Positions 2 through 23,011 of a stretch of DNA of 23,011 nucleotides are shown here, one piece after another. The stretch lies in the UHGV virus genome UHGV-0356582. One strand, given 5' to 3'. This DNA comes from a virus. The translations under genes and the position numbers were made by a program. Under the pieces are notes generated by a model. The model was given only the letters and a program-made list of their open reading frames with translations. It made no database searches and was not told where the DNA came from. Each line of letters begins with the position of its first letter. Within the stretch, counting starts at the first letter, position 1.

Positions 2-727
2 TATACATCCTATGAGAAATATCTGACCATCTCAGGAAAAAGAATTACTTCAAGTAAATCTGAGTGCCCACAGTGCCTTGAGGAGAAAATTCGTAAGAAA
101 GAGATTGAACGTGAGCAGGCAGAACAAAGAGCAAGACAATCAAAAATTGAATATTTGTTGAATTCTCTCAATATTCCAGAGAGGTTCAAAAATTGCACTC
201 TTCAGAATTATGAGCCTGTTAACGATGATGCAAAGCGAGTTCTTAAGGTATGCCAGGCATATGCCAGTAAGTGGCCTGAACGCCTTCAGAAAGGTGGCGG
301 ACTGGTCATGTGTGGTAAGCCTGGAACTGGAAAGAACCACCTTGCACTGGCTATCGCTAGGCACGCCATTATCGAGCATCAAAGCTCTGTGATATTTACC
401 ACTGCGTTGAAAATTGCCAGAGAGTACAAATCAACATGGTCTAAGGCCGCAACCAGAACTGAAGAAGAAGTCATTAGGCAATTTACGCATCCTGACTTGT
501 TAATAATCGATGAGGTTGGCGTGCAGTTCGGCAGTGATGCTGAAAAGCTAATCATGTTCGAAATTATCAACACCAGATATGAATACATGAAGCCAACAAT
601 CCTGATTAGTAATCAGAGCAAAGATGAACTTTCGGCATTCATTGGTGAGCGTGTTATTGACAGGATGAATGATGGCGGCGGATGCACCCTTGCGTTTACA
701 TGGGATAGTTACAGGAGCAGATCGTGA
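2..727 (+). CDS. DnaC-like replicative helicase loader (AAA+ ATPase), 5'-truncated by window edge
   Basis: Reading frame is open from position 2 with no upstream stop. Walker A-like motif CGKPGTGKNHLA and Walker B-like LLIIDEVG. N-terminal Cys pair (ECPQC) typical of phage DnaC-type loaders. Sits upstream of the nin region as in lambdoid replication modules. Confidence 0.8.
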   Translation, partial: YTSYEKYLTISGKRITSSKSECPQCLEEKIRKKEIEREQAEQRARQSKIEYLLNSLNIPERFKNCTLQNYEPVNDDAKRVLKVCQAYASKWPERLQKGGGLVMCGKPGTGKNHLALAIARHAIIEHQSSVIFTTALKIAREYKSTWSKAATRTEEEVIRQFTHPDLLIIDEVGVQFGSDAEKLIMFEIINTRYEYMKPTILISNQSKDELSAFIGERVIDRMNDGGGCTLAFTWDSYRSRS

Positions 728-1014
728 CTGGAAAAGAAATCATCCTGGAATATCTGAAAACTCATGAACAATTCTCCCCACATGAATTAGCTCTGATCAC
801 CGGAATACCAAATAACAGAATCGCTCAAGCAGCAAGGCATATGGTGAAACAAGGGCATTTGAGTGTTGTTGAGCGTAAGTGGAAGACGGTTATTTATGCG
901 AAACGCAAAGTGAAGAAGGAGCCAATTAAAAGAAATCCAGATGGTACGGGGTGGGGATGTGCAAATCCAATGACGGCGTTTATTAATAGGGCGCTTATGG
1001 AGGTAAGGCAATGA
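724..1014 (+). CDS. hypothetical protein, 96 aa, possible winged-helix DNA-binding fold; occupies the ren-equivalent position
   Basis: GTG start overlaps the dnaC-like stop (GTGA). AGGAG at 713-717. Basic C-terminal half. No confident family assignment. Confidence 0.5.
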   Translation: MTGKEIILEYLKTHEQFSPHELALITGIPNNRIAQAARHMVKQGHLSVVERKWKTVIYAKRKVKKEPIKRNPDGTGWGCANPMTAFINRALMEVRQ

Positions 1015-1280
1015 ATAAAAAACAATTAGCCATTCTCGAAAAGGCATGGGATGCACAAATATCATGCGCTTTGAAAGAACAGGCACTACCAATAATCCAG
1101 ACCAAATCGAAAATAGCCAGGCAGTTATGCGATGACGGATTCCTGAACGAAGTTGAGATTACGCGCCAGATGGTAACGTTCAAAGGGTATGAGATAAATC
1201 ATCATGGTATAGCGGCGTATTGCTCCCACCTTCCTGATGACGTTGACATTGATGAAATGGAAAGGGAGATGAAGCAATGA
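1011..1280 (+). CDS. hypothetical protein, 89 aa
   Basis: ATG overlaps the previous stop (ATGA), suggesting translational coupling. GGAGG at 998-1002. No recognisable motif. Confidence 0.5.
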   Translation: MNKKQLAILEKAWDAQISCALKEQALPIIQTKSKIARQLCDDGFLNEVEITRQMVTFKGYEINHHGIAAYCSHLPDDVDIDEMEREMKQ

Positions 1281-1305
1281 CCATCTACATCACTGAGCTA
1301 ATAAC

Positions 1306-1337
1306 AGGCCTGCTGGTAATCGCAGGCCTTTTTATTT
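1306..1337 (+). terminator. intrinsic terminator upstream of ninB (tR2-like position)
   Basis: Perfect 8-bp stem AGGCCTGC (1306-1313) / GCAGGCCT (1322-1329), 8-nt loop, followed by TTTTATTT. Confidence 0.6.
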
Positions 1338-1353
1338 GGGGGAGAGGGAAGTC

Positions 1354-1770
1354 ATGAAAAAACTAACCTTTGAAATTCGATCCCCAGAACATCAGCAAAA
1401 CGCTATTCACGCGGTACAGCAAATTCTTCCAGACCCAACCAAACCAATCGTAGTAACCATTCAGGAACGCAACCGCAGCATTCGGCAAAATGCACGCCTT
1501 CACGCGATGCTATCTGAAATAAGTAAGAAGGCTACATATCATGGAAAAGCAAGAAATATTGAGTTTTGGAAGGGGTTATTCGTTTCTGGTTGGCAGATTG
1601 CAACCAACCAGCACCCTGAGATTATATCAGGGTTAGAAGGTGAGCTAATAAACATCAGAGAGAGTACGGCGACTCTATCTGTAAAAAAAATATCCGAAAT
1701 AATGGACTACATAGAAGCATATTGTGCCATGAACTCAATTCATCTTAGCGAATGGAGGAATTATGATTGA
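1354..1770 (+). CDS. ninB: NinB-family recombination protein; N-terminal ~50 codons lambda-type, remainder divergent and AT-rich (chimeric)
   Basis: MKKLTFEIRSPEHQQNAIHAVQQILPDPTKPIVVTIQERNRS matches my recollection of lambda NinB almost exactly. GGGAGAGGGAAG RBS before the ATG at 1354. The ORF-track start at 1336 lies inside the terminator T-tract and is unlikely. Confidence 0.85.
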   Translation: MKKLTFEIRSPEHQQNAIHAVQQILPDPTKPIVVTIQERNRSIRQNARLHAMLSEISKKATYHGKARNIEFWKGLFVSGWQIATNQHPEIISGLEGELINIRESTATLSVKKISEIMDYIEAYCAMNSIHLSEWRNYD

Positions 1771-2365
1771 GGTTTGGGTAGATATCGAAGGAATTCCATT
1801 TTATCAGGTTAGCAATAAAGGAAATTTCAGGTCTATTACGAGGGAAATTACAGTAACATCAACCAGACAGAGGCCATATAAGAAAATAATTAATGGCACT
1901 AGCGTAAAACCATTCAAGTGCAAGTCGACAGGATATCTTCAAATAAAGGTATACGGTAAGAAATACAGCGCCCACAGGATAGTTGCGAAAGCATTCTGTA
2001 CAGGGTTCTGTGATGGCTTGGTAGTTAATCACAAAAATGGGCAAAGAGATGACAATAGGGCTGAAAACCTTGAATGGGTATCACATTCTGAAAACTCAAA
2101 GCACGGATATAAACAAAATGGAAGAATACCTATATCGCTAGGTAAATTTAGTGGTGATCATCCTGCCAGTAAAGCTGTTATTTCTACTGACATGAAAACT
2201 GGGGAGGAGGTTTATTATGAAGCAGCTATGGATGCTGTCAGAGAAGGATTTGATAGTTCGTCAATTAGTCGTTGCTGTAATGGCGAAAGCTCATATCACA
2301 AAGGAAGATTCTGGCGATTTGCAAATGAAACAATGAAAGCGCGATGGGGAGACAGGGCGGCATGA
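1763..2365 (+). CDS. HNH homing endonuclease (NUMOD4-like N-terminus plus HNH_3-like motif)
   Basis: [17 protein letters not shown] (NUMOD4-like) and [28 protein letters not shown] (His/Asn HNH motif). AT-rich coding sequence. Start overlaps the ninB stop and stop overlaps the ninE start. Confidence 0.85.
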
Positions 2366-2544
2366 GACGACAGCGACGAAGTATCACCGACATCATCTGC
2401 GAAAACTGCAAATACCTTCCAACGAAACGCTCCAGAAATAAACGCAAGCCAATCCCGAAAGAATCTGACGTAAAAACCTTCAACTACACGGCTCACCTGT
2501 GGGATATCCGGTGGCTTAGAGAACGTGCGAGGAAAACAAGGTGA
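2362..2544 (+). CDS. ninE: NinE-family protein, 60 aa
   Basis: [52 protein letters not shown]... matches my recollection of lambda NinE. True start is the ATG at 2362 (ATGA overlap), not the ORF-track start at 2344. Confidence 0.8.
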
Positions 2545-2711
2545 TTGACCCAAATCGAAGTTACGAACAACAAAGCGTAGAGCGGGCTTTAACGTGCGCT
2601 AACTGCGGTCAGAAGCTGCATGTGCTGGAAGTTCACGTGTGTGAGCACTGCTGCGCAGAACTGATGAGCGATCCGAATAGCTCAATGTACGAGGAAGAAG
2701 ACGATGAGTGA
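2541..2711 (+). CDS. ninF: NinF-family small Cys-rich protein, 56 aa, GTG start
   Basis: Not in the ORF track (under 60 aa). Translation [57 protein letters not shown] matches my recollection of lambda/P22 NinF. GTGA overlap with the ninE stop. Confidence 0.7.
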
Positions 2712-2973
2712 TTTCTCTGAGCTTATTTCCTTCAGAAAAGACAGAGAAGAAATGCGGACTGAATCTGTCTATTACGTTCAACACCGGAATAAACGCTCGG
2801 TGCTTGATCAGGAGTTGGTTATTACCGGAGACCTGGCATTCAGAACATATAAGGCCAGCATGGAAATGAAGGATTTCCCTAAATGTGGTTCTGAAAGAGA
2901 AGCAGCGTTAAAGCTGGCAGAGTGGATGCAGAGAATGGCTGCTGCAATTGAGAATTACTGGAGCGAACCATAA
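2704..2973 (+). CDS. hypothetical nin-region protein, 89 aa
   Basis: ATG overlaps the ninF 3' end and its TAA overlaps the ninG ATG (TAATG). I do not recognise the sequence; it sits between ninF and ninG, which are adjacent in lambda as I recall it. Confidence 0.55.
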
Positions 2974-3584
2974 TGGCTAAACCAGCGCGAAGACGATGTA
3001 AAAACGATGAATGTCGGGAATGGTTTCACCCTGCATTCGCTAATCAGTGGTGGTGCTCTCCAGAGTGTGGAACCAAGATAGCACTCGAACGACGAAGCAA
3101 AGAACGCGAAAAAGCGGAAAAAGCAGCAGAGAAGAAACGACGACGAGAGGAGCAGAAACAGAAAGATAAAATTAAGATTCGAAAACTCGCTTTAAAGCCC
3201 CGCAGTTACTGGATTAAACAAGCCCAACAAGCCGTAAACGCCTTCATCAGAGAAAGAGACCGCGACTTACCATGTATCTCGTGCGGAACGCTCACGTCTG
3301 CTCAGTGGGATGCCGGACATTACCGGACAACTGCTGCGGCGCCTCAACTCCGATTTGATGAACGCAATATTCACAAGCAATGCGTGGTGTGCAACCAGCA
3401 CAAAAGCGGAAATCTCGTTCCGTATCGCGTCGAACTGATTAGCCGCATCGGGCAGGAAGCAGTAGACGAAATCGAATCAAACCATAACCGCCATCGCTGG
3501 ACTATCGAAGAGTGCAAGGCGATCAAGGCAGAGTACCAACAGAAACTCAAAGACCTGCGAAATAGCAGAAGTGAGGCCGCATGA
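2973..3584 (+). CDS. ninG: NinG/Rap recombination-associated structure-specific endonuclease
   Basis: [41 protein letters not shown]... near-identical to lambda NinG as I recall it. Two Cys clusters, lysine/glutamate-rich linker. Confidence 0.95.
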
Positions 3585-3787
3585 CGTTCTCAGTAAAAAC
3601 CATTCCAGACATGCTTGTTGAAGCATACGGAAACCAGACAGAAGTGGCACGCAGACTGAAATGTAGTCGCGGCACGGTAAGAAAATACGTTGATGATAAA
3701 GACGGGAAAATGCACGCCATCGTCAACGACGTTCTCATGGTTCATCGCGGATGGAGTGAAAGAGATGCGCTATTACGAAAGAATTGA
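3581..3787 (+). CDS. ninH: NinH, small HTH (Fis-like) protein
   Basis: [37 protein letters not shown]... matches lambda NinH. ATGA overlap with ninG. Confidence 0.9.
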
Positions 3788-4436
3788 TGGCAGCAAATAC
3801 CGAAATATTTGGGTAGTTGGCGATCTGCACGGATGCTACACGAACCTGATGAAAAAACTGGAGACGATAGGATTCGACACCAAAAAAGACCTGCTTATCT
3901 CGGTGGGCGATTTGGTTGATCGCGGTACAGAGAACGTCGAATGCCTGGAATTAATCACATTCCCCTGGTTCAGAGCTGTACGTGGAAACCATGAGCAAAT
4001 GATGATTGATGGCTTATCAGAGCGCGGAAACGTCAATCACTGGATGCTTAATGGCGGTGGCTGGTTCTTTAATCTCGATTACGACAAAGAAATTCTGGCT
4101 AAAGCTCTTGCCCATAAAGCAGATGAACTTCCGTTAATCATCGAACTGGTGAGCAAAGATAAAAAATATGTCATCTGCCACGCCGATTATCCTTGTGACG
4201 AATACGAGTTTGGAAAGCCAGTTGATCATCAGCAGGTAATCTGGAACCGCGAACGAATCAGCAACTCACAAGACGGGATCGTAAAAGAAATCAAAGGAGC
4301 GGACACGTTCATCTTTGGTCATACGCCAGCAGTGAAACCACTCAAATTTGCCAACCAGATGTATATCGATACCGGCGCAGTGTTCTGCGGAAACCTCACA
4401 TTGATTCAGGTACAGGGAGAAGGCGCGTGGGCATAA
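3765..4436 (+). CDS. ninI: NinI serine/threonine protein phosphatase (lambda PPase family, calcineurin-like metallophosphatase)
   Basis: [24 protein letters not shown]...GDLVDRG...GNHE... metallophosphatase motifs, near-identical to lambda PPase. Start taken at ATG 3765 rather than the track's 3690, to match the known N-terminus. Confidence 0.9.
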
Positions 4437-4945
4437 GAGAACTAAACCTAACCAAAGAACAGCATGAGTGGCTGAATGGCTGGCTTGAACTGTGGGGCGC
4501 ATGGGTTTATTCAGGTCGTCTGGAAAAGCGCATGATCAGCGTAATAGCGAAGTTCATGGAGAGCGTAGAGCCGGGAAGAGTTATGACAAGGCCAATGTGT
4601 AATGATGATGATGGAATGTTGATTTCTCAGGTCGTCGATTCCGTCATGTACATTGACAAGAAAGCCTTTGGCATCCTCCTCAGCTACTACGCTCATGGTT
4701 CATCAAAGCGAGCAATTGCATCCTACTATCACGCGACTGCAAAGCCACGCAAGATGTGTGGACGTGGTGGCGAGGGATGGAGAAAACCTTCACTGGCAAC
4801 CTGTAGAAACGAAATTGACGACATCCTGAAATCGTCGTTATTTGTTTTGTACCAACCAATGCAAAATGCTTTCAAAATGCGTAAACGTGTTGAGAAAGTT
4901 AAGCATGTTGCTGTTAAAAGCCTTGACATGCAATTAGCCATTTAG
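4427..4945 (+). CDS. putative late-gene antiterminator Q (assigned mainly by position; not the lambda Q sequence type)
   Basis: GTG start with GGGAGAAGG RBS, overlapping the ninI stop. Lies between ninI and the lysis cassette where Q always sits. A candidate late promoter overlaps its 3' end. I cannot confirm the family by sequence recall. Confidence 0.5.
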
Positions 4946-4952
4946 CCATAAT
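4923..4952 (+). promoter_or_regulatory. candidate late promoter (PR'-like): -35 TTGACA, 18-nt spacer, -10 CATAAT
   Basis: TTGACA at 4923-4928 and CATAAT at 4947-4952. Located at the 3' end of the putative Q gene, as in phage 21/82-type late regulatory regions. Confidence 0.4.
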
Positions 4953-4962
4953 TAGAGGGTAA

Positions 4963-5004
4963 GCTGCCGTTAGTGACTCTTAAGTTGCAACGGTGGCTTT
5001 TTTT
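4963..5004 (+). terminator. candidate intrinsic terminator downstream of the late promoter (tR'-like)
   Basis: Imperfect 9-bp stem (4963-4971 pairing with 4989-4997, two G-U pairs) followed by T7 at 4998-5004. Confidence 0.4.
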
Positions 5005-5444
5005 GTTTGCACAACAGGTAAGAGCATTGAACCCGCAGACCTCGCGGAATTGGTGAAAGGTGCCGCGCAGTGCTCTTATCGTTGTGGTGAATGCACAGGC
5101 TGATGTGTAAGGGCAAGAATCTTTCGCTGGATTCGGTGTGGCCACGTAGCCCGCTGTAGGCAGTTGCAGCAAACCGGAGATCAGCACCGGTCGCCACAAT
5201 CCAAACTGAGCCGTAGCCACTGGCTATCCTGAATTCATCAGTGATAGTTACGCTGCGGCCTTCTACACATGACCTTCGTGAAAGCGGGTGGCAAGAGGCT
5301 GCGCTAACAACCTCATGCCGTTTTGCTCGTGCATATCGGTCACGAACAAATCTGATTACTAAACACAGTAGCCTGGATTTGTTCTATCAGTAATCGACCT
5401 TATTCCTAATTAAATAGAGCAAATCCCCTTATTGTGGGTAAGAC

Positions 5445-5768
5445 ATGAAGATGCCAGAAAAACATGACCTGTTAGCCGCCATTCTCGCGGCAAAGGAACA
5501 AGGCATCGGGGCAATCCTTGCGTTTGCAATGGCGTACCTTCGCGGCAGATATAATGGCGGTGCGTTTACAAAAACAGTAATCGACGCAACGATGTGCGCC
5601 ATTATCGCCTGGTTCATTCGTGACCTTCTCGACTTCGCCGGACTAAGTAGCAATCTCGCTTATATAACGAGCGTGTTTATCGGCTACATCGGTACTGACT
5701 CGATTGGTTCGCTTATCAAACGCTTCGCTGCTAAAAAAGCCGGAGTAGAAGATGGTGGAAATCAATAA
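5445..5768 (+). CDS. S: class I holin S (S107/S105 dual-start type)
   Basis: [41 protein letters not shown]... near-identical to lambda S, including the Met1-Lys2-Met3 dual-start motif. Confidence 0.95.
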
Positions 5769-6228
5769 TCAACGTAAGGCGTTCCTCGATATGCTGGCGT
5801 GGTCAGAGGGAACAGATAACGGACGTCAGAAAACCAGAAATCATGGTTATGACGTCATTGTAGGCGGAGAGCTATTCACTGATTACTCCGATCACCCTCG
5901 CAAACTTGTCACGCTAAACCCCAAACTCAAATCAACAGCAGCCGGACGTTACCAGCTTCTTTCACGTTGGTGGGATGCATACCGTAAGCAGCTTGGCCTG
6001 AAAGACTTCTCTCCGAAAAGCCAGGACGCTGTGGCATTGCAACAGATTAAAGAGCGTGGCGCTTTGCCGATGATTGATCGCGGTGATATCCGTCAGGCAA
6101 TCGACCGTTGCAGCAATATCTGGGCTTCGTTGCCCGGGGCTGGTTATGGCCAGTTCGAGCATAAGGCTGACAGCCTGATTACAAAATTCAAAGAAGCTGG
6201 CGGAACAGTCAGAGAGATTGAGGTATGA
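5752..6228 (+). CDS. R: endolysin R (lytic transglycosylase)
   Basis: [49 protein letters not shown]... matches lambda R, 158 aa. Start overlaps the S 3' end. Confidence 0.95.
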
Positions 6229-6662
6229 GCAGAGTAACCGCGATTATCTCCGCTCTGGTTATCTGCATCATCGTTTGCCTGTCATGGGCTGTTAATCACT
6301 ACCGTGATAACGCCATCGCCTACAAAGAGCAGCGCGATAAGGCCGCATCCACAATTGCTGACATGCAGAAGCGTCAACGTGATGTAGCAGAACTCGACGC
6401 CAGATACACAAAGGAGCTTGCTGATGCTAACGCGACTATCGAAAGCCTCCGTGCTGATGTTTCTGCTGGTCGTAAGCGCCTGCAAGTCGCCGCCACCTGT
6501 GCAAAGTCAACGACCGGAGCCAGCAGCATGGGCGATGGAGAAAGCCCAGGACTTACAGCAGATGCTGAACTCAATTATTACCGTCTCAGAAGTGGAATCG
6601 ACAGGATAACCGCGCAGGTTAACTACCTGCAGGAGTACATCAGGACGCAATGCCTGAAATAA
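6225..6662 (+). CDS. Rz: i-spanin Rz
   Basis: N-terminal transmembrane segment [31 protein letters not shown] matches lambda Rz; the C-terminal coiled-coil part is divergent. ATGA overlap with R. Confidence 0.9.
6418..6609 (+). CDS. Rz1: o-spanin Rz1 (lipoprotein), embedded in the +1 frame of Rz
   Basis: Signal peptide with lipobox LVVSAC followed by a proline-rich segment ([13 protein letters not shown]). Fully nested in Rz, as in lambda. Exact start (6418 or an internal Met) is uncertain. Confidence 0.75.
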
Positions 6663-6693
6663 TTTTTTTGCAAATCACAAAGTCCATTTAATG

Positions 6694-6719
6694 AGCCTCG
6701 CGATGCGGGGCTTTTTATT
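6694..6719 (+). terminator. intrinsic terminator after Rz
   Basis: 8-bp stem AGCCTCGC / GCGGGGCT (one G-U pair), 3-nt loop, then TTTTATT. Confidence 0.55.
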
Positions 6720-6740
6720 CCCAACTCTATAGGTAATTTT

Positions 6741-7268
6741 ATGACCCAGCATATTGGCGTAAAACTGATTAACGCCTTTCCGATGACGAGACAGGCATAT
6801 AACGATTTTCGTGGCTGGCAGCTTCCAGCCGGAGAAAACGGCGAGGACGAAGGCTATCTGGTTGAATATCTGGATGGCGGAAAACCTAACACCGATCGCT
6901 TTGATGGCTACGTTAGCTGGAGTCCAAAAGAAGTATTCGAAAAGGCTTATCGTCCGGTATCAGGGCTAAGTTTCGGCCTTGCCATTGAAGCGCTCAAGTT
7001 GGGGAATAAAGTTGCCCGTGCTGGCTGGAATGGTAAGGGTATGTGGCTGGCATACGTTAAACCGTACACTGAGGCTGTTCATACTGGCAGTACGCCTTGC
7101 TTTTGCAGTCGCGTCTTTGAGTTGCCTGAAGGTACGCATGGAGAACCGAAACGATCTCCGAAACAACTTCCGTATATCGCCATGAAAACAGCGGACGATA
7201 AATTAGTGCCGTGGCTGGCTAGTCAGACTGATGTTCTAGCAGAAGACTGGCAAATCATTACCATGTAG
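6741..7268 (+). CDS. hypothetical protein, 175 aa; C-terminal half resembles the DUF2829 (Tad2-like) small phage protein family
   Basis: Segments FGLAIEALKLGNKVARAGWNGKGMWLAY and PYIAMKTADDKLVPWLASQTDVLAEDWQII match the conserved pattern I associate with DUF2829. Gene is immediately downstream of a terminator. Family assignment is unverified. Confidence 0.5.
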   Translation: MTQHIGVKLINAFPMTRQAYNDFRGWQLPAGENGEDEGYLVEYLDGGKPNTDRFDGYVSWSPKEVFEKAYRPVSGLSFGLAIEALKLGNKVARAGWNGKGMWLAYVKPYTEAVHTGSTPCFCSRVFELPEGTHGEPKRSPKQLPYIAMKTADDKLVPWLASQTDVLAEDWQIITM

Positions 7269-7562
7269 GCATTACAAAGCCCATCTACGGGTGGGCTTGA
7301 TAATGAAACCGGAATTTATTCTAGGTAACCAGTTACGGCAGTACAGCGAAACAACCCAAGCCAGAAAGTGGGGAAATAACACTGGCAGCCACTGAAAGAT
7401 GAACCTCCAGCCTTATGGCAAAAAAGATTCTTTGTGGTGGCGGACTGATGGAAAGACATCGGTTATTGCAGAGACCATTCAATGAGTGGTCTCGACAATG
7501 GCTTATACCCTACACGGGATAACTTAACTGATATCCCTTTTAACGGATAAACGGAGCCAACA

Positions 7563-7805
7563 ATGGCAGAGATTATTCCCATGACTGAAGAACAGAAATT
7601 CCAGTTAGAGATTTACAAACTGGTCATGAACCAGAACGCAGCCGCAGAAGAAGCATTTCAGTTCATTGGCACTGACGAACTGAAGCTTGAGCTATTCAAA
7701 ATTCACTTCCAGTCAGGCGGCGCTAATTCAGATATCACGATCCGCACATTTGAAGCGGTGCGTAAATCGAAGGAAGCGTTAGACCTGTTCACTACCGGAG
7801 CATAA
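7563..7805 (+). CDS. hypothetical protein, 80 aa, upstream of the terminase genes
   Basis: GGAG at 7551-7554 before the ATG. Ends 2 nt before the small terminase start. No recognisable motif. Confidence 0.5.
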   Translation: MAEIIPMTEEQKFQLEIYKLVMNQNAAAEEAFQFIGTDELKLELFKIHFQSGGANSDITIRTFEAVRKSKEALDLFTTGA

Positions 7806-7807
7806 AC

Positions 7808-8248
7808 ATGGCGCGCCCAACAAAGTATCAAGAGGCGTACGCCGAACAGGCACGCAAACTGTGCTTGCTGGGCTACACCGATGCAGAGCTTGCTGATTTC
7901 TTCGAAGTCAGTGAGTCAACTATTAACAAGTGGAAGCTTGATTATCCTGAGTTTTCGGAGTCCATAAAAAAGGGTAAGGCCGTTGCTGATGCAGAAGTTA
8001 GTGACCGTCTTTATCAACGCGCTATGGGCTTCGTGGCTCCAGACATCGATATTCGTGTTATTGAAAACAGAATTGTCGAAACTCCGCTTGAGAAGTATTA
8101 CCCGCCTGATACAACCGCCGCCATCTTCTGGCTTAAGAACCGACAGAAGGATAAATGGCGCGACAAGGTTGATCACGAACTAACAGGCAAAGACGGCGGC
8201 GCAATTCAGATTGAAACATCACCGATGAGCACTCTATTCGGAAAATGA
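7808..8248 (+). CDS. terminase small subunit
   Basis: N-terminal HTH-like segment (YTDAELADFFEVSESTINKWK). Immediately precedes and overlaps (ATGA) the large terminase gene. Size and position fit Sf6-type TerS. Confidence 0.8.
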   Translation: MARPTKYQEAYAEQARKLCLLGYTDAELADFFEVSESTINKWKLDYPEFSESIKKGKAVADAEVSDRLYQRAMGFVAPDIDIRVIENRIVETPLEKYYPPDTTAAIFWLKNRQKDKWRDKVDHELTGKDGGAIQIETSPMSTLFGK

Positions 8249-18223: not shown

Positions 18224-19612
18224 ATGGCTACTTGGCAAGGATCAAATGGTGGATTGTTAGCTGGTATCGGCGGCGTCAACTCAAACGCTCCGAGCGTAAA
18301 TGACATCGGCAATACGCTTCAGCTTATCAGGCAGAACAATGATATTGAGCGTTCAGGCGCTAACAATGTTGGGCTGACTGCTTTGCAAGGTCTTTCAGGT
18401 ATTGCAGGGGTGTTTCAGCAGGAAAAGCAGGCTCAGCGGCAGAAAGAATTTCAGCAGGCGTACGCTAATGCTTATGCGTCTGGTGATCGCGGTGCTTTGC
18501 GTCAGTTGGCTACTCAATATCCAGACCAGATTGAATCCGTTCGTAAAGGCATGGGATTCATTGATGAAGATCAGCGTAATTCTATCGGCACCTTAGCGGC
18601 TGGCGCACGCCTTGCGTCATCGTCTCCAGAAGCAATGCAATCATGGCTGCAAAACAACGCCAAGGAACTGACTCGCGTCGGTGTTGACCCTAACAGCGTT
18701 GCTCAGATGTATCAGCAGAATCCTTCAGGATTTGGTGAGTTTGTTGATCACCTTGGGATGGCTGCTCTTGGTCCGATTGATTACTTCAATGTTCAGGACA
18801 AGATGGCTGGTCGTGAAATTGACCGAGGCAGGCTGGCAGAGACAATCCGCAGCAATCAGGCTGGAGAGGCGCTAACAGCACGAGGTCAGAACATCACGAT
18901 GCGCGGTCAGGACTTATCTGCTTCTACTGCGCGACGCGGGCAGGATTTGGCAATGCAGCGAGCGTCAACAAGAGGAACCGCTGGGAATGATGAGCGTACA
19001 GTTCAGTTATCAGATGGCAGAACTGTAACGGTAGGAGGGAAACTTCACGGCGCTGGGGCTAATGCGTTCTACGAAGGCATCGACAACGAGGGGAATATGG
19101 TTCGCGTTCCTGCCAGTTCAATCGCTGCGCCGGCAACATCGTCTGCATCAGCACAAAACTATGCCATGAAGAAGGATATCGACGCGATCGCAAATGCAGA
19201 CGCTTCTGCTCTCGATTTCATGACAGGAATGACAGGCGGTGCAGGTAATCCAGCAATTGGTACTGATGTTCGCAGCCGATTAACGGGAAAAGAGCAGCGC
19301 CAGTTATATAACTCAGCACAACGTATTCAGGGCAGAATGCAGAATCAGGGTGTGGCGGCAGCAAGGGACATGGGTGCCAGTGGTATTAACACCGTTGCAG
19401 AAGCGAAGATGTATTTTCAGGGGATGCCGCAGGTTGACTATTCAAGCCCGGAGGCTATGCAGCAGTCGATTCGTGAGATTCAGGAATACACTAACAATTA
19501 CAACCAACAATATAACGTTAATGTTGGTAAATCTCAGCGGCAGCAATCTCAACCTGCACAGGTATCACAGCCAGCAGCCGGCAGTAACTTTTCTTCACTA
19601 TGGGGTGATTAA
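18224..19612 (+). CDS. ejection (injection) protein, P22 gp20-like
   Basis: 462 aa, low-complexity Gln/Ala-rich. Order and size match P22 gp20. Confidence 0.7.
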
Positions 19613-21609
19613 TGGCTAAAGCATGGAAAGATGTTATCGCCTCTCCACAGTATCAGGCGTTAGCACCAGAACAAAAAGCGCAGGCTCAGGAGCAATACTT
19701 CAATGAAGTCGTGGCCCCGCAAGCCGGAGAAAATGCAGAGCAGGCTAAGCAAGCTTTCTATGCTGCCTATCCATTGCCATCTGTGCAGCAAGTGGAGACA
19801 CAGCAACCAGTAGCACAGCAACAACCACAGCAAAGTGGATTTATGTCTGATCTTGGCGAAGCAGTAAAAGAGACTGGTCGCGGACTGGTGCAGGCTGGCG
19901 TTAACGTGGCAAACATACCTGCATCAGTTGCCGATGCTGTAACAAGCGCGGCGGCATGGGCTGGCGGTAAACTCGGTATTGGCGATGGTACATATCAACC
20001 AGCGCCACGAGTAACAACGCAGGGATTAGAGCAGGACTTTGGCCTTCAGCAAGGCGCGCTGACTCCACAAACGACAGAGGGAAGGGTATTTGCTGAAGCA
20101 TTGCCTTACCTCACTCCTGCTGGCGTTGAGAGGGCGGCGGCACAGGCACCAACACTTGCTAGTCGAATTGCTCAGGGGGCAACTCGCCTTCTCGCTGAAA
20201 ACGCAGTTGGATCACTTGCTGCAAATAGTGCGAAAGATGATGCGGAAGCACTCGCCACCGATTTAGGCGTTGGTGTACTGGCTGGCGGTGCTATTAACGC
20301 TGCCGGACGTGGATTAGGTGCTGCTTATCGTGGCGTTCGTGGTGCTATCGCGCCAGAAGCGCAGCAGGCTATCAGATTTGCAGAGCGTGTAGGAGTTCCT
20401 CTGCACACCACAGACCTGTTACAACCAACTTCCCGCGTCGGGAAAATGGCGCAGACTACAGCAGAAAATATCCCTCTGGCTGGCACAAGCGGAATGAGAG
20501 CAACGCAACAGGAAGCGAGAAGTCAGTTGGTGCAGAGATTTGCTGATAAATTCGGCGAGTACGATCCGGCAGTTGTTATTGACAGCCTTAAAGCGAAAAC
20601 ATCAGGAATTCGGCGTGCTGCAGGAAATCGACTGGAGCAGGTTCAGAATGCTATGGCGGGAATAAACATTCAGCCTGCAAGAGCAATTCAGCAGATTGAT
20701 ACAGAAATATCTAACCTGCAGAAGCTTGGTAAGGTTGCTGATAACGAGACTATTTCAAAACTTCAGTCCTATCGTGATGAGCTTGTTCGCAATGCTGGTC
20801 CTGATGGTCCGGTAAATCTGGATTTGAAGCAATTAAGCGATCTGCGCAGCCAGTTCAGAATGGACGTGAAGGGGGAGCGACCAGTGTTACCAAACCGTTC
20901 CGATGCTGCCATTCAGCGCGTTTACAAGGCAATGACCGACGATATCAATGGTGCCATTGGTCAGAATCTTGGCAACGATACTCTCCGTAAATATCAGCAG
21001 GCCAATGCCGTCTACGCTGACGAAGCGGCGAAACTAAAGAATACCAGGCTGAAGAATGTTCTCATGAAAGGCGACCTGACGCCGGAAGTTGTCAACAACA
21101 TGCTATTCAGCAAGAACAAATCGGAAATTAAGACGCTGTATAACTCAGTTGGTCGTGTTGGCAGGGCGCAAATGCGCAATGGCATCATTGGAAAGGCGAT
21201 GGAGAAATCTGGCGGATCCCCTGACCAGTTCCTTCGACAGCTTAACATCCTGCAAAACCAGACTGGCATCACATTTAAGGGGCAGGACGCTGCTTATCTG
21301 AAAGGATTAAAAAACTATCTGCAATCCACACAGCAGGCTGCAAAAGCGGCAGTAACAACACCCACAGGGCAGCAAACTATCCCGTTCATTATTGGGTATG
21401 GGACGGCAATGAACCCGGCGACAACTGGCGCAGCAGTAAGCTACGGACTTCTTACTCGCGCCTATGAGAGCGAGCCATTCAGAAATGCAATGCTCCGAAT
21501 GGCAAACACCCCACGCGGATCGACAGCGTTTGAGAAAGCCATGCAGCAAGCGCAAAAAGCGATTAATGCACTGACGCAGGGTGCGAAGTCTGATTCGTTG
21601 TCAGAATAG
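19612..21609 (+). CDS. ejection (injection) protein, P22 gp16-like
   Basis: 665 aa, Ala/Gly/Gln-rich. ATGA-coupled to the previous gene. Last gene of the rightward structural operon before the leftward genes. Confidence 0.7.
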   Translation: MAKAWKDVIASPQYQALAPEQKAQAQEQYFNEVVAPQAGENAEQAKQAFYAAYPLPSVQQVETQQPVAQQQPQQSGFMSDLGEAVKETGRGLVQAGVNVANIPASVADAVTSAAAWAGGKLGIGDGTYQPAPRVTTQGLEQDFGLQQGALTPQTTEGRVFAEALPYLTPAGVERAAAQAPTLASRIAQGATRLLAENAVGSLAANSAKDDAEALATDLGVGVLAGGAINAAGRGLGAAYRGVRGAIAPEAQQAIRFAERVGVPLHTTDLLQPTSRVGKMAQTTAENIPLAGTSGMRATQQEARSQLVQRFADKFGEYDPAVVIDSLKAKTSGIRRAAGNRLEQVQNAMAGINIQPARAIQQIDTEISNLQKLGKVADNETISKLQSYRDELVRNAGPDGPVNLDLKQLSDLRSQFRMDVKGERPVLPNRSDAAIQRVYKAMTDDINGAIGQNLGNDTLRKYQQANAVYADEAAKLKNTRLKNVLMKGDLTPEVVNNMLFSKNKSEIKTLYNSVGRVGRAQMRNGIIGKAMEKSGGSPDQFLRQLNILQNQTGITFKGQDAAYLKGLKNYLQSTQQAAKAAVTTPTGQQTIPFIIGYGTAMNPATTGAAVSYGLLTRAYESEPFRNAMLRMANTPRGSTAFEKAMQQAQKAINALTQGAKSDSLSE

Positions 21610-21699
21610 CCTTTCAAACACCAGGAACGTGCAAAAACCAAATATGTAGAACGCGATGTTTATCGTATCCCTCTGCATAGGCGATACCTTTGCTGATTG

Positions 21700-22188
21700 T
21701 TATCTGATGTTACTGCTACTGTTGCATGTTACCGTGTTTCCAAATCCTGAATTGCAGTTTGTATATGTGTCAACGCGTGTTGGGTAAGGTTGAGTTATAA
21801 CAGGCTGGCGCGCTTTTTGCTCGATAGCTTGCATTGTGTTTACAGCCTGATAATTCAATAAAGCCTGCTGGAATGCTTGGCTTTGTGCTATTTGTTGGGC
21901 TTGTTCTTGGCTTTGTAATTGAACATAAAGATTCTGAAGCTCAAGTCTTGCCTGTGCGTCACTTATCTTGCCTTCATCAACACCTTGCCCGAGCATCTTT
22001 GCAGCAAGGACATACAGCTTAGGTGTTGGTGCAGATGCCATGCGTGAGTCGTTCTTCACACTGGCATCAAGGCAATTAGCCATATCGCTAAGCTTTTGAT
22101 AGCGTTGTTCGCAACTTGCTTGATAGTCACTTACTTTTGCGCATCCAACCAGCAGAAGCGGGATAATTAACAGTGATTTTTTCATATG
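21700..22188 (-). CDS. predicted lipoprotein, about 162 aa, Gln-rich middle and Cys-containing C-terminus
   Basis: Start ATG at 22186-22188 on the minus strand, preceded by AGGAGAG. Signal peptide MKKSLLIIPLLLVGC with a lipobox. AT-rich. Opposite strand to the structural operon, at the P22 sieA/immI position. Confidence 0.7.
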   Translation of the reverse strand, partial: HMKKSLLIIPLLLVGCAKVSDYQASCEQRYQKLSDMANCLDASVKNDSRMASAPTPKLYVLAAKMLGQGVDEGKISDAQARLELQNLYVQLQSQEQAQQIAQSQAFQQALLNYQAVNTMQAIEQKARQPVITQPYPTRVDTYTNCNSGFGNTVTCNSSSNIR

Positions 22189-22255
22189 GTTAACTCTCCT
22201 TAGTTTTTCACAGGATATCATGAAGGCAATGCCATTTTAGCCGGAAACTAGATTT

Positions 22256-22522
22256 CTATGTTTCCTTTTTATTATTGCTATACATGGTCTTAAGCGTTTC
22301 AAAAACCATTTTCTTAACCATATCGGATTGTTGTTCTGCCATACGCTCTGCATCGTCAATGTAAACTGATGCAGAGCTTTGTTTATCCAATGATTCCTCA
22401 ATCGCTGCAATTATCTCTGAGTTCAGCGATCTGTTATTCATCTTCGCACGCTGTTTAATTTTCGCGTGGAGTTCATGCGGAAGTCTCAAGTGAAACTGCG
22501 CCTCGTCGTATTTGCTGTACAT
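22256..22522 (-). CDS. mnt: Mnt-like ribbon-helix-helix repressor (Arc/MetJ superfamily)
   Basis: FHLRLPHELHAKIKQRAKMNNRSLNSEII... and ...DDAERMAEQQSDMVKKMVFETLK... parallel P22 Mnt (NFRMPMEVREKLKFRAEANGRSMNSELL... / ...NDAERLADEQSELVKKMVFDTLK...). Start taken at the internal ATG (22522); the upstream in-frame ATG at 22555 lacks an RBS. Confidence 0.8.
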   Translation of the reverse strand: MYSKYDEAQFHLRLPHELHAKIKQRAKMNNRSLNSEIIAAIEESLDKQSSASVYIDDAERMAEQQSDMVKKMVFETLKTMYSNNKKET

Positions 22523-22595
22523 CCTTGATGCCTCACCAGGTGGGTGGAATGGCATCGTAACTTACTGGATAAATACTCAATAGTACCATTTCGGT

Positions 22596-22618
22596 ATGCA
22601 ATCACATCATGATTGCAT
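22596..22618. promoter_or_regulatory. 23-bp dyad-symmetric element (candidate operator) between mnt and the tailspike gene
   Basis: ATGCAATCA-CATCA-TGATTGCAT: perfect 9-bp inverted arms around a 5-bp centre, in the 120-bp divergent intergenic region. Confidence 0.4.
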
Positions 22619-22642
22619 CATATCATTCGTCTGGAGCAATGA

Positions 22643-23011
22643 AATGTCAGATATCACCGCAAATGTTGTGGTAAGCATGCCTTCGCAACTCTTCACTATG
22701 GCGCGTTCTTTTAAAGCCGTAGCCAATGGCAAAATTTATATCGGTAAAATTGACACTGACCCGGTAAATCCAGAAAACCAGATTCAGGTTTATGTAGAGA
22801 ATGAAGACGGCTCTCACGTTCCTGTTTCGCAGCCAATCATCATTAACGCTGCTGGATATCCGGTATATAACGGACAGATTGCCAAATTCGTTACTGTACA
22901 GGGCCATTCTATGGCTGTTTATGATGCGTATGGGGCGCAGCAGTTCTATTTTCCGAATGTGCTGAAGTATGATCCTGATCAATTTTCTGTATGGGCAAAA
23001 AATCATTTCAG
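22643..23011 (+). CDS. tailspike protein, N-terminal head-binding domain (P22 gp9-like), 3'-truncated by window edge
   Basis: [59 protein letters not shown]...VLKYDPDQF closely matches the P22 tailspike N-terminus. GGAG 7 nt upstream. ORF runs off the window. Confidence 0.9.

Follow-up and report, generated by a model that had tools for sequence, protein, structure and literature searches.

An 'ant moron' variant carrying mnt and a predicted lipoprotein gene in a P22-like Escherichia coli prophage

Introduction

The slot between gene 16 (ejection protein) and gene 9 (tailspike) is the one accessory site of P22-like (Lederbergvirus) prophages in which all cargo characterised so far serves immunity (mnt-arc-ant) or exclusion (sieA). 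The published cassettes of this site are termed 'ant morons' (immI/sieA slot), and Mnt-only versions have been described for ST64T, ST104 and phage L (PMC2629481, PMC8022706), with the prophage of E. coli B7A among the sources of Figure 3 in the former report (Villafane et al., 2008). According to the P22 annotation, the mnt-orf59a transcript is terminated and sieA possesses its own promoter. SieA, a polytopic inner-membrane protein with a mapped promoter and a demonstrated exclusion phenotype (Leavitt et al., 2024; PMC10883804), is encoded by only 22 of 66 P22-like phages (PMC10883804), leaving many without a known entry block.

Apart from SieA, lipoproteins encoded by mobile elements offer further points of comparison. 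Cor (phi80/N15/HK022) and Llp of T5 are anchored as lipoproteins in the outer membrane, where they block the FhuA receptor from its periplasmic face, while Bor of lambda and TraT of the F plasmid, likewise located in the outer membrane, provide serum resistance or surface exclusion. The bor gene lies antisense within the late gene region and is expressed from the prophage.

Organisation of the cassette

The window (the whole stretch of 23,011 nt analysed here) belongs to a P22-like E. coli prophage in which mnt and a lipoprotein gene lie on the minus strand between gene 16 and the tailspike ATG (Table 1). The cassette is of a known accessory kind, being one version of the 'ant moron' already published for P22-like phages, with which it shares the slot between genes 16 and 9, a leftward mnt facing the tailspike gene and Pmnt/Omnt-like signals. 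The same mnt-lipoprotein arrangement is carried by the E. coli B7A prophage. As in L and ST64T, arc, ant and sieA are lost and one accompanying gene of unknown function is present; however, this gene is orf62 in phage L and encodes a 161-aa lipoprotein of a widespread family in the window. The window Mnt also differs from that of the described 'ant moron' phages in its recognition strand and operator half-site.

Table 1. Coordinates of the cassette and its flanks in the window
Feature	Position	Strand	Description
Gene 16 homologue (ejection protein)	19612..21609	+	Last late gene before the cassette; 665-aa ORF after the gp20 homologue
Spacer between the convergent stops of gene 16 and the lipoprotein gene	21610..21699		90 nt
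Lipoprotein gene	21700..22185	-	Predicted 161-aa precursor; PHROG 6067
RBS AAGGAGAG of the lipoprotein gene	22194..22201	-	8 nt upstream of ATG 22185; read from the sequence
mnt-lipoprotein spacer	22186..22255	-	70 nt; no terminator; holds TGATATCCT
mnt	22256..22522	-	88 aa (most likely start); Pfam Arc and Repressor_Mnt
Putative Pmnt	22554..22580	-	-35 TTGAGT (22575-22580), 15-nt spacer, -10 TACGAT (22554-22559)
Omnt-like operator AGTACCAT-T-TCGGTATG	22582..22598		Next to the -35 of putative Pmnt
Second palindrome ATGCAATCA-CATCA-TGATTGCAT	22596..22618		Perfect 9-nt arms; 25 nt upstream of the tailspike ATG
Tailspike gene, 5' end (head-binding domain)	22644..23011	+	Runs off the window; RBS GGAG 22633-22636

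A first-pass annotation, made from the sequence alone, had assigned the interval to the P22 sieA/immI slot, and comparison with the P22 annotation agrees, the P22 sieA gene having the same position and strand adjoining gene 16 as the lipoprotein gene. That annotation had recognised mnt and the lipoprotein gene, oriented against the late operon, as its sole contents and had noted the lack of arc and of an antirepressor. The ORFs lie where it placed them, and tblastn with P22 Arc, Ant and SieA returned no homologue in the window; the divergent arc/ant of a complete immI (mnt-arc-ant-sar) was thus not detected. Furthermore, Ant, KilA and Bro domains were not found in the ten scanned ORFs of 155-8248, the left arm of the prophage lying outside the window. 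Two of its figures required correction, namely the length of the lipoprotein (161 aa from the start at 22185, instead of 162 aa) and the mnt-lipoprotein gap (70 nt, instead of 67 nt). Its description of the lipoprotein gene as AT-rich holds in direction but only moderately in degree (43% and 40% GC in the cassette vs 51% in gene 16).

The gp20 homologue (18224-19612) matches Pfam Inj_translocase (E=8.7e-78), the gene 16 product is named injection protein, DNA transfer protein or P22-gp16 family in the annotation of relatives, and the tailspike translation resembles P22-like tailspikes, for which Pfam Head_binding is recorded in relatives. The spacer between gene 16 and the lipoprotein gene, which spans 9-36 nt in relatives as against 90 nt in the window, contains no predicted intrinsic terminator on either strand and folds no better than its shuffles.

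The mnt gene, its promoter and its operator

The minus-strand ORF 22256-22555, called a Mnt-like ribbon-helix-helix (RHH) repressor in the first-pass annotation, is indeed a full-length Mnt homologue with both domains. Its N-terminal RHH DNA-binding domain matches Pfam Arc (PF03869, E=1.2e-14), its C-terminal coiled-coil tetramerisation domain matches the corresponding Mnt family (PF11423, E=3.9e-12), and the solved P22 Mnt structures are matched as well (1MNT, E=8.5e-19 over residues 6-78; 1QEY, E=1.2e-6). Among the fetched related loci, 42 of 42 full-length window-type mnt copies are intact, with a pN/pS of 0.135. The window mnt therefore encodes a full Mnt-type tetrameric RHH repressor, which is kept intact by selection despite the absence of arc and ant.

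The true start of Mnt is most likely the ATG at 22522, the extension to 22555 probably being 5' leader. The sequence upstream of 22522 aligns with the -10 hexamer of Pmnt and the leader of the Gally and Serratia relatives, and the RefSeq mnt measures 267 nt in strains B7A and O26:H11 11368; both the alignment and the RefSeq calls disfavour a 99-aa product starting at ATG 22555. A compensated indel occurs within the mnt extension of one relative, which makes the rejection of the 99-aa start less than absolute.

The putative Pmnt resembles the annotated P22 Pmnt (TTGAGA-17-TATCAT) in both place and sequence, with the counterparts TTGAGG-17-TAAGAT in Gally and TTGTTG-17-TATCAT in Serratia. The 15-nt spacer of the inferred window promoter is poor, and two related variants carry 2 extra nt at this point, which restores a 17-nt spacer. 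Adjoining the -35, the Omnt-like site occupies the position of P22 Omnt; its promoter-proximal half is perfect and its distal half degenerate (4 of 8 symmetric positions). The Serratia operator is a perfect palindrome, AGTACCAT-A-ATGGTACT, to which one half of the window site is identical, and AGTACCAT is found only once within the window. The recognition strand covaries with the half-site: HFNFRMP accompanies AGGTCCAC in P22, QFNLRLP accompanies AGACCAC in Gally, and QFHLRLP, common to the Mnt proteins of Serratia and the window, accompanies AGTACCAT. On these homologies, mnt would be transcribed from the Pmnt-like promoter, and the half-site by the -35 would fit the recognition strand of the window Mnt.

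The second palindrome has counterparts in related loci (AATCA/TGGTT, AACCA/TGGTT and AATCA/TGATT) whose pairing is kept only in plus-strand RNA. As an Mnt operator it was rejected, since Mnt operators have an 8+1+8 layout, unlike its own 9+5+9 geometry, and some relatives with a window-type mnt lack it. A promoter scan also picked up an alternative leftward promoter, CTGACA-17-AATGAT (22622-22650), the use of which would place both palindromes within the mnt leader; the scan returned no more promoter-like sites in the region than in shuffled sequence. Repression of Pant by Mnt finds no counterpart in the window, which yielded neither ant nor arc and does not preserve the TTGACA -35 of P22 Pant. 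The best candidate for a functional Pant reading into the tailspike gene, TGGAAT-17-GATAAA, has 7 of 12 matches, falls below the scan threshold and was discarded.

The lipoprotein and its family

The lipoprotein gene is read from an internal start within the minus-strand ORF 21700-22221, and its precursor begins with MKKSLLIIPLLLVGC followed by AKV. A predicted signal peptide carries the lipobox LLVG/C-AK, with C15 as the putative lipid-bearing Cys and Ala at position +2 (outer-membrane sorting rule). In an alignment of 31 sequences, this Cys is invariant, and the preceding G and the following A-K-V are at least 90% conserved. Four more Cys residues (25, 38, 144 and 154), which count as two pairs in the family pattern, are conserved; all five Cys columns are retained in the 31 close homologues, and four stay invariant when distant homologues are added. 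The AlphaFold model comprises a confident helical domain (~18-98), a long Gln-rich helix reaching to residue 125 and a low-confidence C-terminal beta-hairpin. Sequence-based prediction thus describes a Sec/Lsp-processed lipoprotein sorted to the outer membrane, whose mature form would expose to the periplasm a compact disulfide-bonded helical domain, a Gln-rich helix of ~50 residues and a Cys-bridged C-terminal hairpin.

The protein matches PHROG 6067 (function unknown) over profile positions 1-161 of 161 (E=1.6e-110). No match was obtained in Pfam, NCBIfam or PADLOC, nor in fold and structure comparisons including PDB and BFVD, and ten distant relatives scanned with Pfam and NCBIfam yielded nothing meaningful. 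An identity as GspK was dismissed as noise (18.9 bits against a cut-off of 130, together with a 'GspK' name in one source). Searches of the literature by accession and by topic retrieved no paper on this lipoprotein.

The first-pass annotation had proposed looking for homologues and a conserved neighbourhood, and both were found: there are 89 homologues, mostly of 153-162 aa, and all Enterobacterales relatives with inspected flanks, from seven genera, have the gene next to gene 16 of a P22-like prophage. The lipoprotein gene occurs in 186 of 5426 complete E. coli genomes (~3%), including EHEC O26:H11 11368 and ETEC B7A, and the full mnt-lipoprotein arrangement occurs in 100 of the 5426 at a query coverage of at least 80%. 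Among phage records it is present in only 5 of 50,697, being absent from P22, Sf6, HK620, CUS-3 and most sequenced Lederbergvirus phages, and a scan of genome contigs gave only 2 loci. Allele diversity is low, with 97-100% identity in 80 IMG/VR loci (the best 80 of 126 matches). The wider family comprises about 250 representative clusters, including chromosomal copies in non-enteric Proteobacteria; its distant members are chromosomal lipoproteins of environmental Proteobacteria that adjoin housekeeping genes, which points to a more general envelope role.

With a dN/dS of 0.04-0.05 for the lipoprotein, both cassette genes are under purifying selection. This constraint, the intact mnt copies, the conservation of the family in the slot across seven genera and the frequency of the arrangement in E. 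coli make it extremely unlikely that the cassette is a decaying immI remnant without current function, a possibility also weighed for phage L (PMC8022706) and one that would accommodate the loss of arc and ant, the degenerate distal operator half and the non-conserved Pant -35.

Transcription of the cassette

The first-pass annotation had suggested that mnt and the lipoprotein gene form a two-gene unit, which Mnt may autoregulate, and comparison with relatives lends real support to the unit itself. In the window, the 70-nt gap contains no predicted terminator (folding z-score +0.75) and no promoter that reaches the scan threshold. The lipoprotein gene is usually the last of an mnt-led operon, with spacings of 4-20 nt in Serratia, Proteus, Pectobacterium and some E. 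coli-type viral contigs, and ORF clustering of the slot places a Mnt/Arc-family ORF in 83 lipoprotein loci. The two genes are 17 nt apart in Serratia and also in Proteus phage Brookers, whose lipoprotein is only 55% identical; in the IMG/VR loci L028/L032 the lipoprotein gene follows a small membrane protein gene by 4 nt at the end of a tightly packed mnt-led operon, and in Pectobacterium it closes a four-gene mnt-led operon with gaps of 0-20 nt. Against a single unit, P22 separates the mnt and sieA transcripts. Some relatives have the lipoprotein gene on its own (Morganella, Yersinia, Cronobacter and one E. coli-type locus), and in the Gally-type and L049-type architectures a divergent gene begins 33-135 nt upstream of its ATG, so that expression without mnt is possible. 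Given the P22 precedent, in which transcription stops after mnt-orf59a and sieA is served by a promoter of its own, adjacency is no proof of co-transcription.

A serious possibility, albeit with chances well below even, is therefore that mnt and the lipoprotein gene are independent units, the latter with its own constitutive promoter like P22 sieA and the former kept for trans-immunity against antirepressor phages or to act on late read-through into the tailspike gene. Besides the arrangements in P22 and in the relatives just described, a conserved TGnTATCCT motif ~30 nt upstream of the lipoprotein ATG could constitute such a promoter. The window gap holds TGATATCCT, an extended -10-like motif, and the homology among different architectures ends ~40 nt upstream of this ATG, the block so delimited containing an RBS conserved in almost all architectures. 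Window-type mnt also occurs without the lipoprotein gene, in Sf101 and probably in IME10 (where the match spans only 688 bp), and among the E. coli genomes 263 carry window-type mnt as against 186 with the lipoprotein gene. Furthermore, tailspike-level control or 'another function' has been raised for orphan Mnt (PMC2629481, PMC8022706). Nevertheless, the gaps between mnt and the lipoprotein gene in four other lineages (4-20 nt) are too short to house a separate lipoprotein promoter there, and the window gap itself is devoid of a terminator and of a promoter at threshold.

In the explanation preferred here, the interval would be an 'ant moron' of P22-like prophages cut to two functional leftward genes, and transcription from Pmnt would, judging by synteny, run on across the gap and cover the lipoprotein gene as well. 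In P22 lysogens Pmnt is the active promoter, and the prophage would accordingly produce the lipoprotein. In the most likely model, the lipoprotein would be an exclusion or conversion factor facing the periplasm. The explanation as a whole, in which it would replace SieA as an exclusion factor, is given slightly less than an even chance.

Candidate functions of the cassette

A role of the lipoprotein in blocking other phages is plausible, in view of its position, its export signal and its mutual exclusivity with sieA. Like P22 SieA, it is encoded directly after gene 16, downstream of mnt, on the same strand, and is predicted to reside in the envelope. None of the loci and phage records examined contained both: among the phage records, 41 carry SieA and 5 the lipoprotein with no overlap, tblastn with P22 SieA as the only SieA type queried gave no match in the window or in any lipoprotein locus, and no SieA-like ORF appears among the slot ORFs of these loci. 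In contrast to SieA, with which it shares no sequence similarity, the lipoprotein is predicted to be sorted to the outer membrane, and a mapped promoter of its own and an exclusion phenotype belong to SieA only.

That the lipoprotein is a superinfection-exclusion factor replacing the inner-membrane SieA is put forward tentatively, its probability being appreciably below even. Exclusion would then proceed from the outer-membrane or periplasmic side, by interference with the ejection-protein conduit or with an outer-membrane protein that entry requires. More speculatively, the orphan Mnt may protect the lysogen in trans by silencing the ant promoters of incoming relatives that have the same operator. 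Cor and Llp provide the nearest analogy, being likewise small phage-encoded lipoproteins with an outer-membrane sorting signal and a gene near that of the receptor-binding protein. However, the match to phrog_1119 (Cor; E=0.035) covers only residues 2-32, i.e., the signal peptide; the window lipoprotein is twice the size, with its helical domain and long Gln-rich helix; and its host phages use O-antigen and ejection proteins instead of FhuA. Homology or fold matches to known exclusion proteins (Cor, Llp, SieA, Sim and the PADLOC models) were not found. Co-evolution with a presumed target is not indicated either, as lipoproteins 98-100% identical adjoin gp16 proteins of two C-terminal types with just 35% identity between them, and the lipoprotein was not tied to any one gp16 or tailspike type. 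The most far-reaching version is unlikely, namely that the lipoprotein is the founding member of a novel class of periplasmic exclusion proteins, anchored in the outer membrane, that would block the ejection conduit or docking partner of P22-like podoviruses, standing in for SieA and co-expressed with a defensive orphan Mnt, and that its family of ~250 clusters would be an unrecognised envelope defence module.

Rather unlikely, with a somewhat better chance than that broad version, is a function as a lysogenic-conversion factor for the host (serum or complement resistance, envelope robustness or adhesion, like lambda Bor and F TraT), for which the slot would merely be the sole insertion-tolerant site in the late operon. 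The breadth of the family, with its chromosomal copies beside housekeeping genes, speaks for it, and strong purifying selection combined with low allele diversity fits a host-directed function better than an arms race. The lack of a tie to gp16 or tailspike type is likewise in its favour, as is the observation that the P22-like morphogenetic cluster accepts morons at this single site (PMC2629481). The gene resembles bor in its antisense placement within the late gene region. Nevertheless, sequence or fold similarity to Bor or TraT, or homology to any curated family, was not detected, and a conversion factor leaves mutual exclusivity with sieA and the constant adjacency to the ejection-protein gene to be accounted for; moreover, other prophage lipoprotein genes near receptor-binding genes encode exclusion factors (Cor, Llp; PMC11990801).

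A service to the lytic cycle, as an Llp-like factor sparing progeny from cell debris or as a lysis or virion accessory, is very unlikely. The location of the gene inside the late gene cluster would suit such a role, and T5 Llp is an outer-membrane lipoprotein that performs it (bioRxiv 10.64898/2026.03.26.714494; PMC11990801), but the window gene runs against the late operon, is linked to the lysogeny-expressed mnt and is missing from most P22-like phages, a distribution that also led to rejection of a virion component. The Rz (i-spanin) lysis gene lies elsewhere (6225-6662, plus strand), and an identity of the lipoprotein as o-spanin (Rz1) was rejected, its gene being 15 kb away on the opposite strand.

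If the lipoprotein blocks entry, it would account for the protection of hosts by P22-like prophages that lack sieA and would provide a periplasmic handle on the poorly understood ejection-protein conduit, with a bearing on host range in phage therapy. If it is a host-fitness factor, it would represent a widespread unannotated conversion gene in pathogenic E. coli. Either way, a selected, intact Mnt without Ant bears on the question, posed by phage L, of whether orphan Mnt has a function of its own. The accompaniment of the lipoprotein gene varies among relatives: arc and ant are present next to the same gene in L028, L032, L084 and L004, with the mnt-led operon of L028/L032 adjoining a complete arc-ant module, and the slot in relatives also carries other small exported proteins.

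Gene content of the gene 16–tailspike interval

The window comprises the right half of a P22-like (Lederbergvirus) prophage of E. coli type, running from the nin region through Q and the lysis, terminase, portal, coat and ejection protein genes to the start of the tailspike gene. Two minus-strand ORFs occupy the interval (slot) between gene 16 and the tailspike gene. The first-pass annotation had described them as a Mnt-like RHH repressor and a lipoprotein gene lying antisense at this place, which the ORF positions and the Pfam and PHROG matches confirm; the mnt ORF also matches the solved N-terminal (1MNT, E=8.5e-19) and tetramerisation (1QEY, E=1.2e-6) domains of P22 Mnt. The cassette is AT-rich as reported (40–43% GC vs 51% in gene 16). 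The slot had been equated with the sieA and mnt-arc-ant interval of P22, and the P22 annotation agrees, placing sieA, orf59a, mnt, arc, sar and ant there. The claimed absence of arc and ant holds within the window, where P22 Arc, Ant, SieA and orf59a as tblastn queries gave no match; Ant, Bro and KilA domains were likewise absent from ten scanned ORFs of 155–8248. The left arm of the prophage, in which an antirepressor gene could lie, is outside the window.

Coordinates of features in the window and in related loci (L numbers)
Feature	Sequence	Position	Strand	Details
Gene 16	window	end 21609		
Lipoprotein ORF	window	21700–22221	−	internal ATG 22185, AAGGAGAG just 5'
mnt ORF	window	22256–22555	−	Pfam Arc E=1.2e-14; Mnt C-terminal domain E=3.9e-12
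Inferred Pmnt	window	−35 22575–22580; −10 22554–22559		TTGAGT; 15-nt spacer; TACGAT; from alignment with P22, Gally, Serratia
Omnt-like site	window	22582–22598		AGTACCAT-T-TCGGTATG; directly beside Pmnt −35, at the position of P22 Omnt
Perfect 9+5+9 palindrome	window	22596–22618		ATGCAATCA-CATCA-TGATTGCAT; 25 nt upstream of tailspike start
Tailspike gene	window	start 22644		RBS GGAG 22633–22636; N-terminal head-binding sequence typical of P22-like tailspikes
HNH homing-endonuclease gene	window	1763–2365	+	nin region; NUMOD4 and HNH_3 domains
Tad2-like gene	window	6741–7268	+	175 aa, directly 3' of Rz; Pfam E=2e-25
179-aa gene	L010	2969–3508		also in L023, L043
139-aa second lipoprotein gene	L001	3821–4240		phage Gally gp14
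121-aa HExxH protein gene	L049	5170–5535	−	
Distant lipoprotein relatives	L096; L097; L098/L099	6208–6633; 8001–8375; 8001–8387		environmental Proteobacteria

The arrangement itself is already known, because the region is the "ant moron" of Villafane et al. (2008; PMC2629481), reported as ten types in sixteen genomes, with mnt-only versions accompanied by one gene of no known function (ST64T, ST104 and Para1) and the E. coli B7A prophage among the figure sources, and because the mnt-only region of phage L has been discussed, with the functionality of mnt there left as a question (PMC8022706). In today's B7A assembly, the prophage has the window arrangement. What is added here is that the partner gene of mnt encodes a conserved lipoprotein family of predicted outer-membrane type, that it lies consistently at the sieA position and repeatedly closes operons led by mnt, that both genes are under purifying selection, and that an operator and promoter can be proposed for the window type of Mnt.

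The lipoprotein family

Of the initial description of a 162-aa lipoprotein encoded 67 nt from mnt, the gene and its strand stand, and the figures become 161 aa and 70 nt. Translation from the internal ATG yields a precursor (MKKSLLIIPLLLVGC/AKV) with a classical lipobox and Ala at +2. By the Lol sorting rule, Ala at +2 predicts the outer membrane as its location. PHROG 6067 (function not assigned in PHROG) matches the protein end to end (E=1.6e-110), and 89 homologues were found in Escherichia, Citrobacter, Serratia, Cronobacter, Klebsiella, Pectobacterium, Yersinia, Pantoea, Morganella and Tatumella. The lipid-bearing Cys is invariant in the alignments and four more are conserved (25/38 and 144/154), which suggests two periplasmic disulfides. 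AlphaFold gives a confident helical domain (residues ~18–98, pLDDT 83–92). After it come a long Gln-rich helix (to 125), a linker rich in Pro and a beta-hairpin that is bridged by Cys and modelled at low confidence.

Searching 1.8 billion representative proteins with a profile (E up to 0.001; clusters at 50% identity) extended the family to 253 clusters, many of them of 125–135 aa and retaining the N-terminal domain and a C-terminal TTxCxxxGNxxxC motif; distant relatives of 124–141 aa have the same Cys pattern. Where context was readable, some distant members belong to islands that also carry integrase, small terminase and toxin-antitoxin genes, while others are chromosomal and adjoin housekeeping genes (Zn peptidase, EarP). 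No annotation of these distant members, matching Pfam or NCBIfam model, or paper on the lipoprotein was found.

A decaying immI remnant is very unlikely, as window-type mnt is intact in all 42 full-length copies among the fetched related loci (pN/pS 0.135) and the lipoprotein gene has a dN/dS of 0.04–0.05 against close relatives; in comparisons with other genera, pN is 0.19–0.35 with synonymous sites saturated. Among 5426 complete E. coli genomes, window-type mnt is present in 263 and the lipoprotein gene in 186.

Probable start and proposed promoter and operator of mnt

The region upstream of mnt was aligned with that of Gally-type and Serratia relatives and of P22, in which Pmnt, Pant, Oarc and Omnt are annotated. 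Because 22523–22555 corresponds by homology to the −10 hexamer of Pmnt and the 5' leader in the relatives (GCCNNTCCACNCAC...GNGAGGCA), mnt most likely starts at ATG 22522 (88 aa), with which the RefSeq start is consistent. The same evidence speaks against the upstream ATG (99-aa Mnt). This longer start, which numerous database entries and members of PHROG 795 use, seems to be an annotation artefact, as does the PHROG 795 label "partition protein ATPase"; the extension overlaps the inferred −10 and leader.

Two extra nucleotides in two related variants restore a 17-nt Pmnt spacer. At the operator position, Serratia relatives have a perfect palindrome (AGTACCAT-A-ATGGTACT) and share with window Mnt the recognition strand QFHLRLP; Gally pairs QFNLRLP with AGACCAC-A-GTGGTCT, and P22 pairs HFNFRMP with AGGTCCAC-G-GTGGACCT. 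Such covariation of recognition strand and operator supports the putative assignment for window Mnt, only the promoter-proximal half-site being intact in the window. Since the strong P22 Pant (−35 TTGACA) is conserved in none of the three mnt-only types, there is little support for Mnt gating a promoter that fires into the tailspike gene.

The palindrome upstream of the tailspike gene varies in related loci (AATCA/TGGTT in most, AACCA/TGGTT, AATCA/TGATT); pairing survives among the variants, through a G-U intermediate, in plus-strand RNA but is lost in minus-strand RNA. Two possible roles are a hairpin formed by the late transcript in the 5' UTR of the tailspike gene and a protein-binding site.

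Transcriptional organisation

The proposal that mnt and the lipoprotein gene form a two-gene unit finds partial support. The 70-nt gap has no predicted terminator and folds no better than shuffled sequence; it shrinks to 17 nt in Serratia and in phage Brookers of Proteus, whose lipoprotein is 55% identical. In L028/L032 from IMG/VR, beside a complete arc-ant module, mnt is followed by a gene for an 81-aa two-TM protein and, after 4 nt, the lipoprotein gene, which also ends a four-gene mnt-led operon in Pectobacterium (gaps of 0–20 nt). Mnt is expressed in P22 lysogens; by analogy, mnt-led operons should be prophage-expressed.

Against an operon, however, the P22 annotation places termination after orf59a and a separate promoter before sieA. 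Upstream of the lipoprotein ATG, homology across different architectures extends for ~40 nt only, a block that includes a TGnTATCCT motif resembling an extended −10. A divergent gene lies upstream in Gally-type loci (the second lipoprotein) and L049-type loci (the HExxH protein); in Morganella, Yersinia, Cronobacter and one E. coli-type locus, the lipoprotein gene occurs by itself and faces the tailspike gene; and window-type mnt occurs without it in Sf101 and probably in IME10 (match only 688 bp). Co-transcription from Pmnt is somewhat favoured for the window, the lipoprotein gene nevertheless being a separable module.

The HExxH protein (MKKVNIGNVPKMLVPLFESG...HECAHMAF; 10 loci besides L049) is encoded from ~33 nt beyond the lipoprotein ATG on the opposite strand, and the promoters of the two genes would each have to overlap the neighbouring coding region.

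Slot context and distribution

In all enterobacterial relatives with flanks read, the lipoprotein gene is immediately beside and convergent with gene 16 of a P22-like prophage. Its surroundings vary: the gp16 C-terminus comes in two types sharing only 35% identity, the tailspikes are of many types, and the remainder of the slot has eight versions or more. SieA or a SieA-like polytopic ORF was found in none of the lipoprotein loci examined, and among phage records 41 carry SieA and five the lipoprotein, with no overlap. The whole arrangement occurs at ≥80% query coverage in 100 complete E. coli genomes, ETEC B7A included, and the gene order is the same in EHEC O26:H11 11368.

Exported proteins are over-represented in the slot, the others being the 139-aa lipoprotein of Gally, the 81-aa two-TM membrane protein and a 104-aa protein with a signal peptide. 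The 139-aa protein (MKRIIGVVAGAILLSGC...; L001 and 15 other loci) is unrelated to the first lipoprotein; its gene lies between the first lipoprotein gene, from which it diverges, and mnt. The 104-aa protein occurs in seven loci. Some relatives have a different gene, of 179 aa, inserted precisely between mnt and the tailspike gene, a place where RefSeq labels the gene of two E. coli genomes an HNH endonuclease. The neighbouring gp16 homologue in Serratia and Klebsiella aerogenes (L103, L090–L092) has 836–901 aa and an SLT lytic-transglycosylase domain; window gp16 has no SLT match in Pfam, and RefSeq names its close copies "lytic transglycosylase domain-containing".

Possible functions

SieA acts on ejection proteins and is present in only 22/66 P22-like phages (Leavitt et al., PMC10883804). 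The slot context fits an envelope-acting exclusion factor replacing SieA, a role that may tentatively be ascribed to the lipoprotein at somewhat under an even chance; it fits almost as well another host-directed, Bor/TraT-like conversion factor parked in the sole insertion-tolerant site, which we consider rather unlikely, and a role in the lytic cycle is highly improbable. One conceivable way for the lipoprotein to act is by inhibiting an ejected transglycosylase in the periplasm, in the manner of T4 Sp. Present in ~3% of complete E. coli genomes, the gene offers an easily testable candidate for exclusion or conversion.

Since it is selected for, the orphan Mnt does something, and three options are available: autoregulation of the mnt-lipoprotein transcript, trans-repression of the ant promoters of incoming relatives with the same operator, or an effect on the tailspike gene. 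Mnt takes part in the bipartite immunity of P22, a known role that trans-repression, if true, would extend. In the third option, suggested earlier (PMC2629481), Mnt would modulate late transcription that reads through into the tailspike gene.

Elsewhere in the window, the nin region contains an HNH homing-endonuclease gene, and the Tad2-like (Thoeris anti-defence 2) domain marks a candidate anti-defence gene of the late region.
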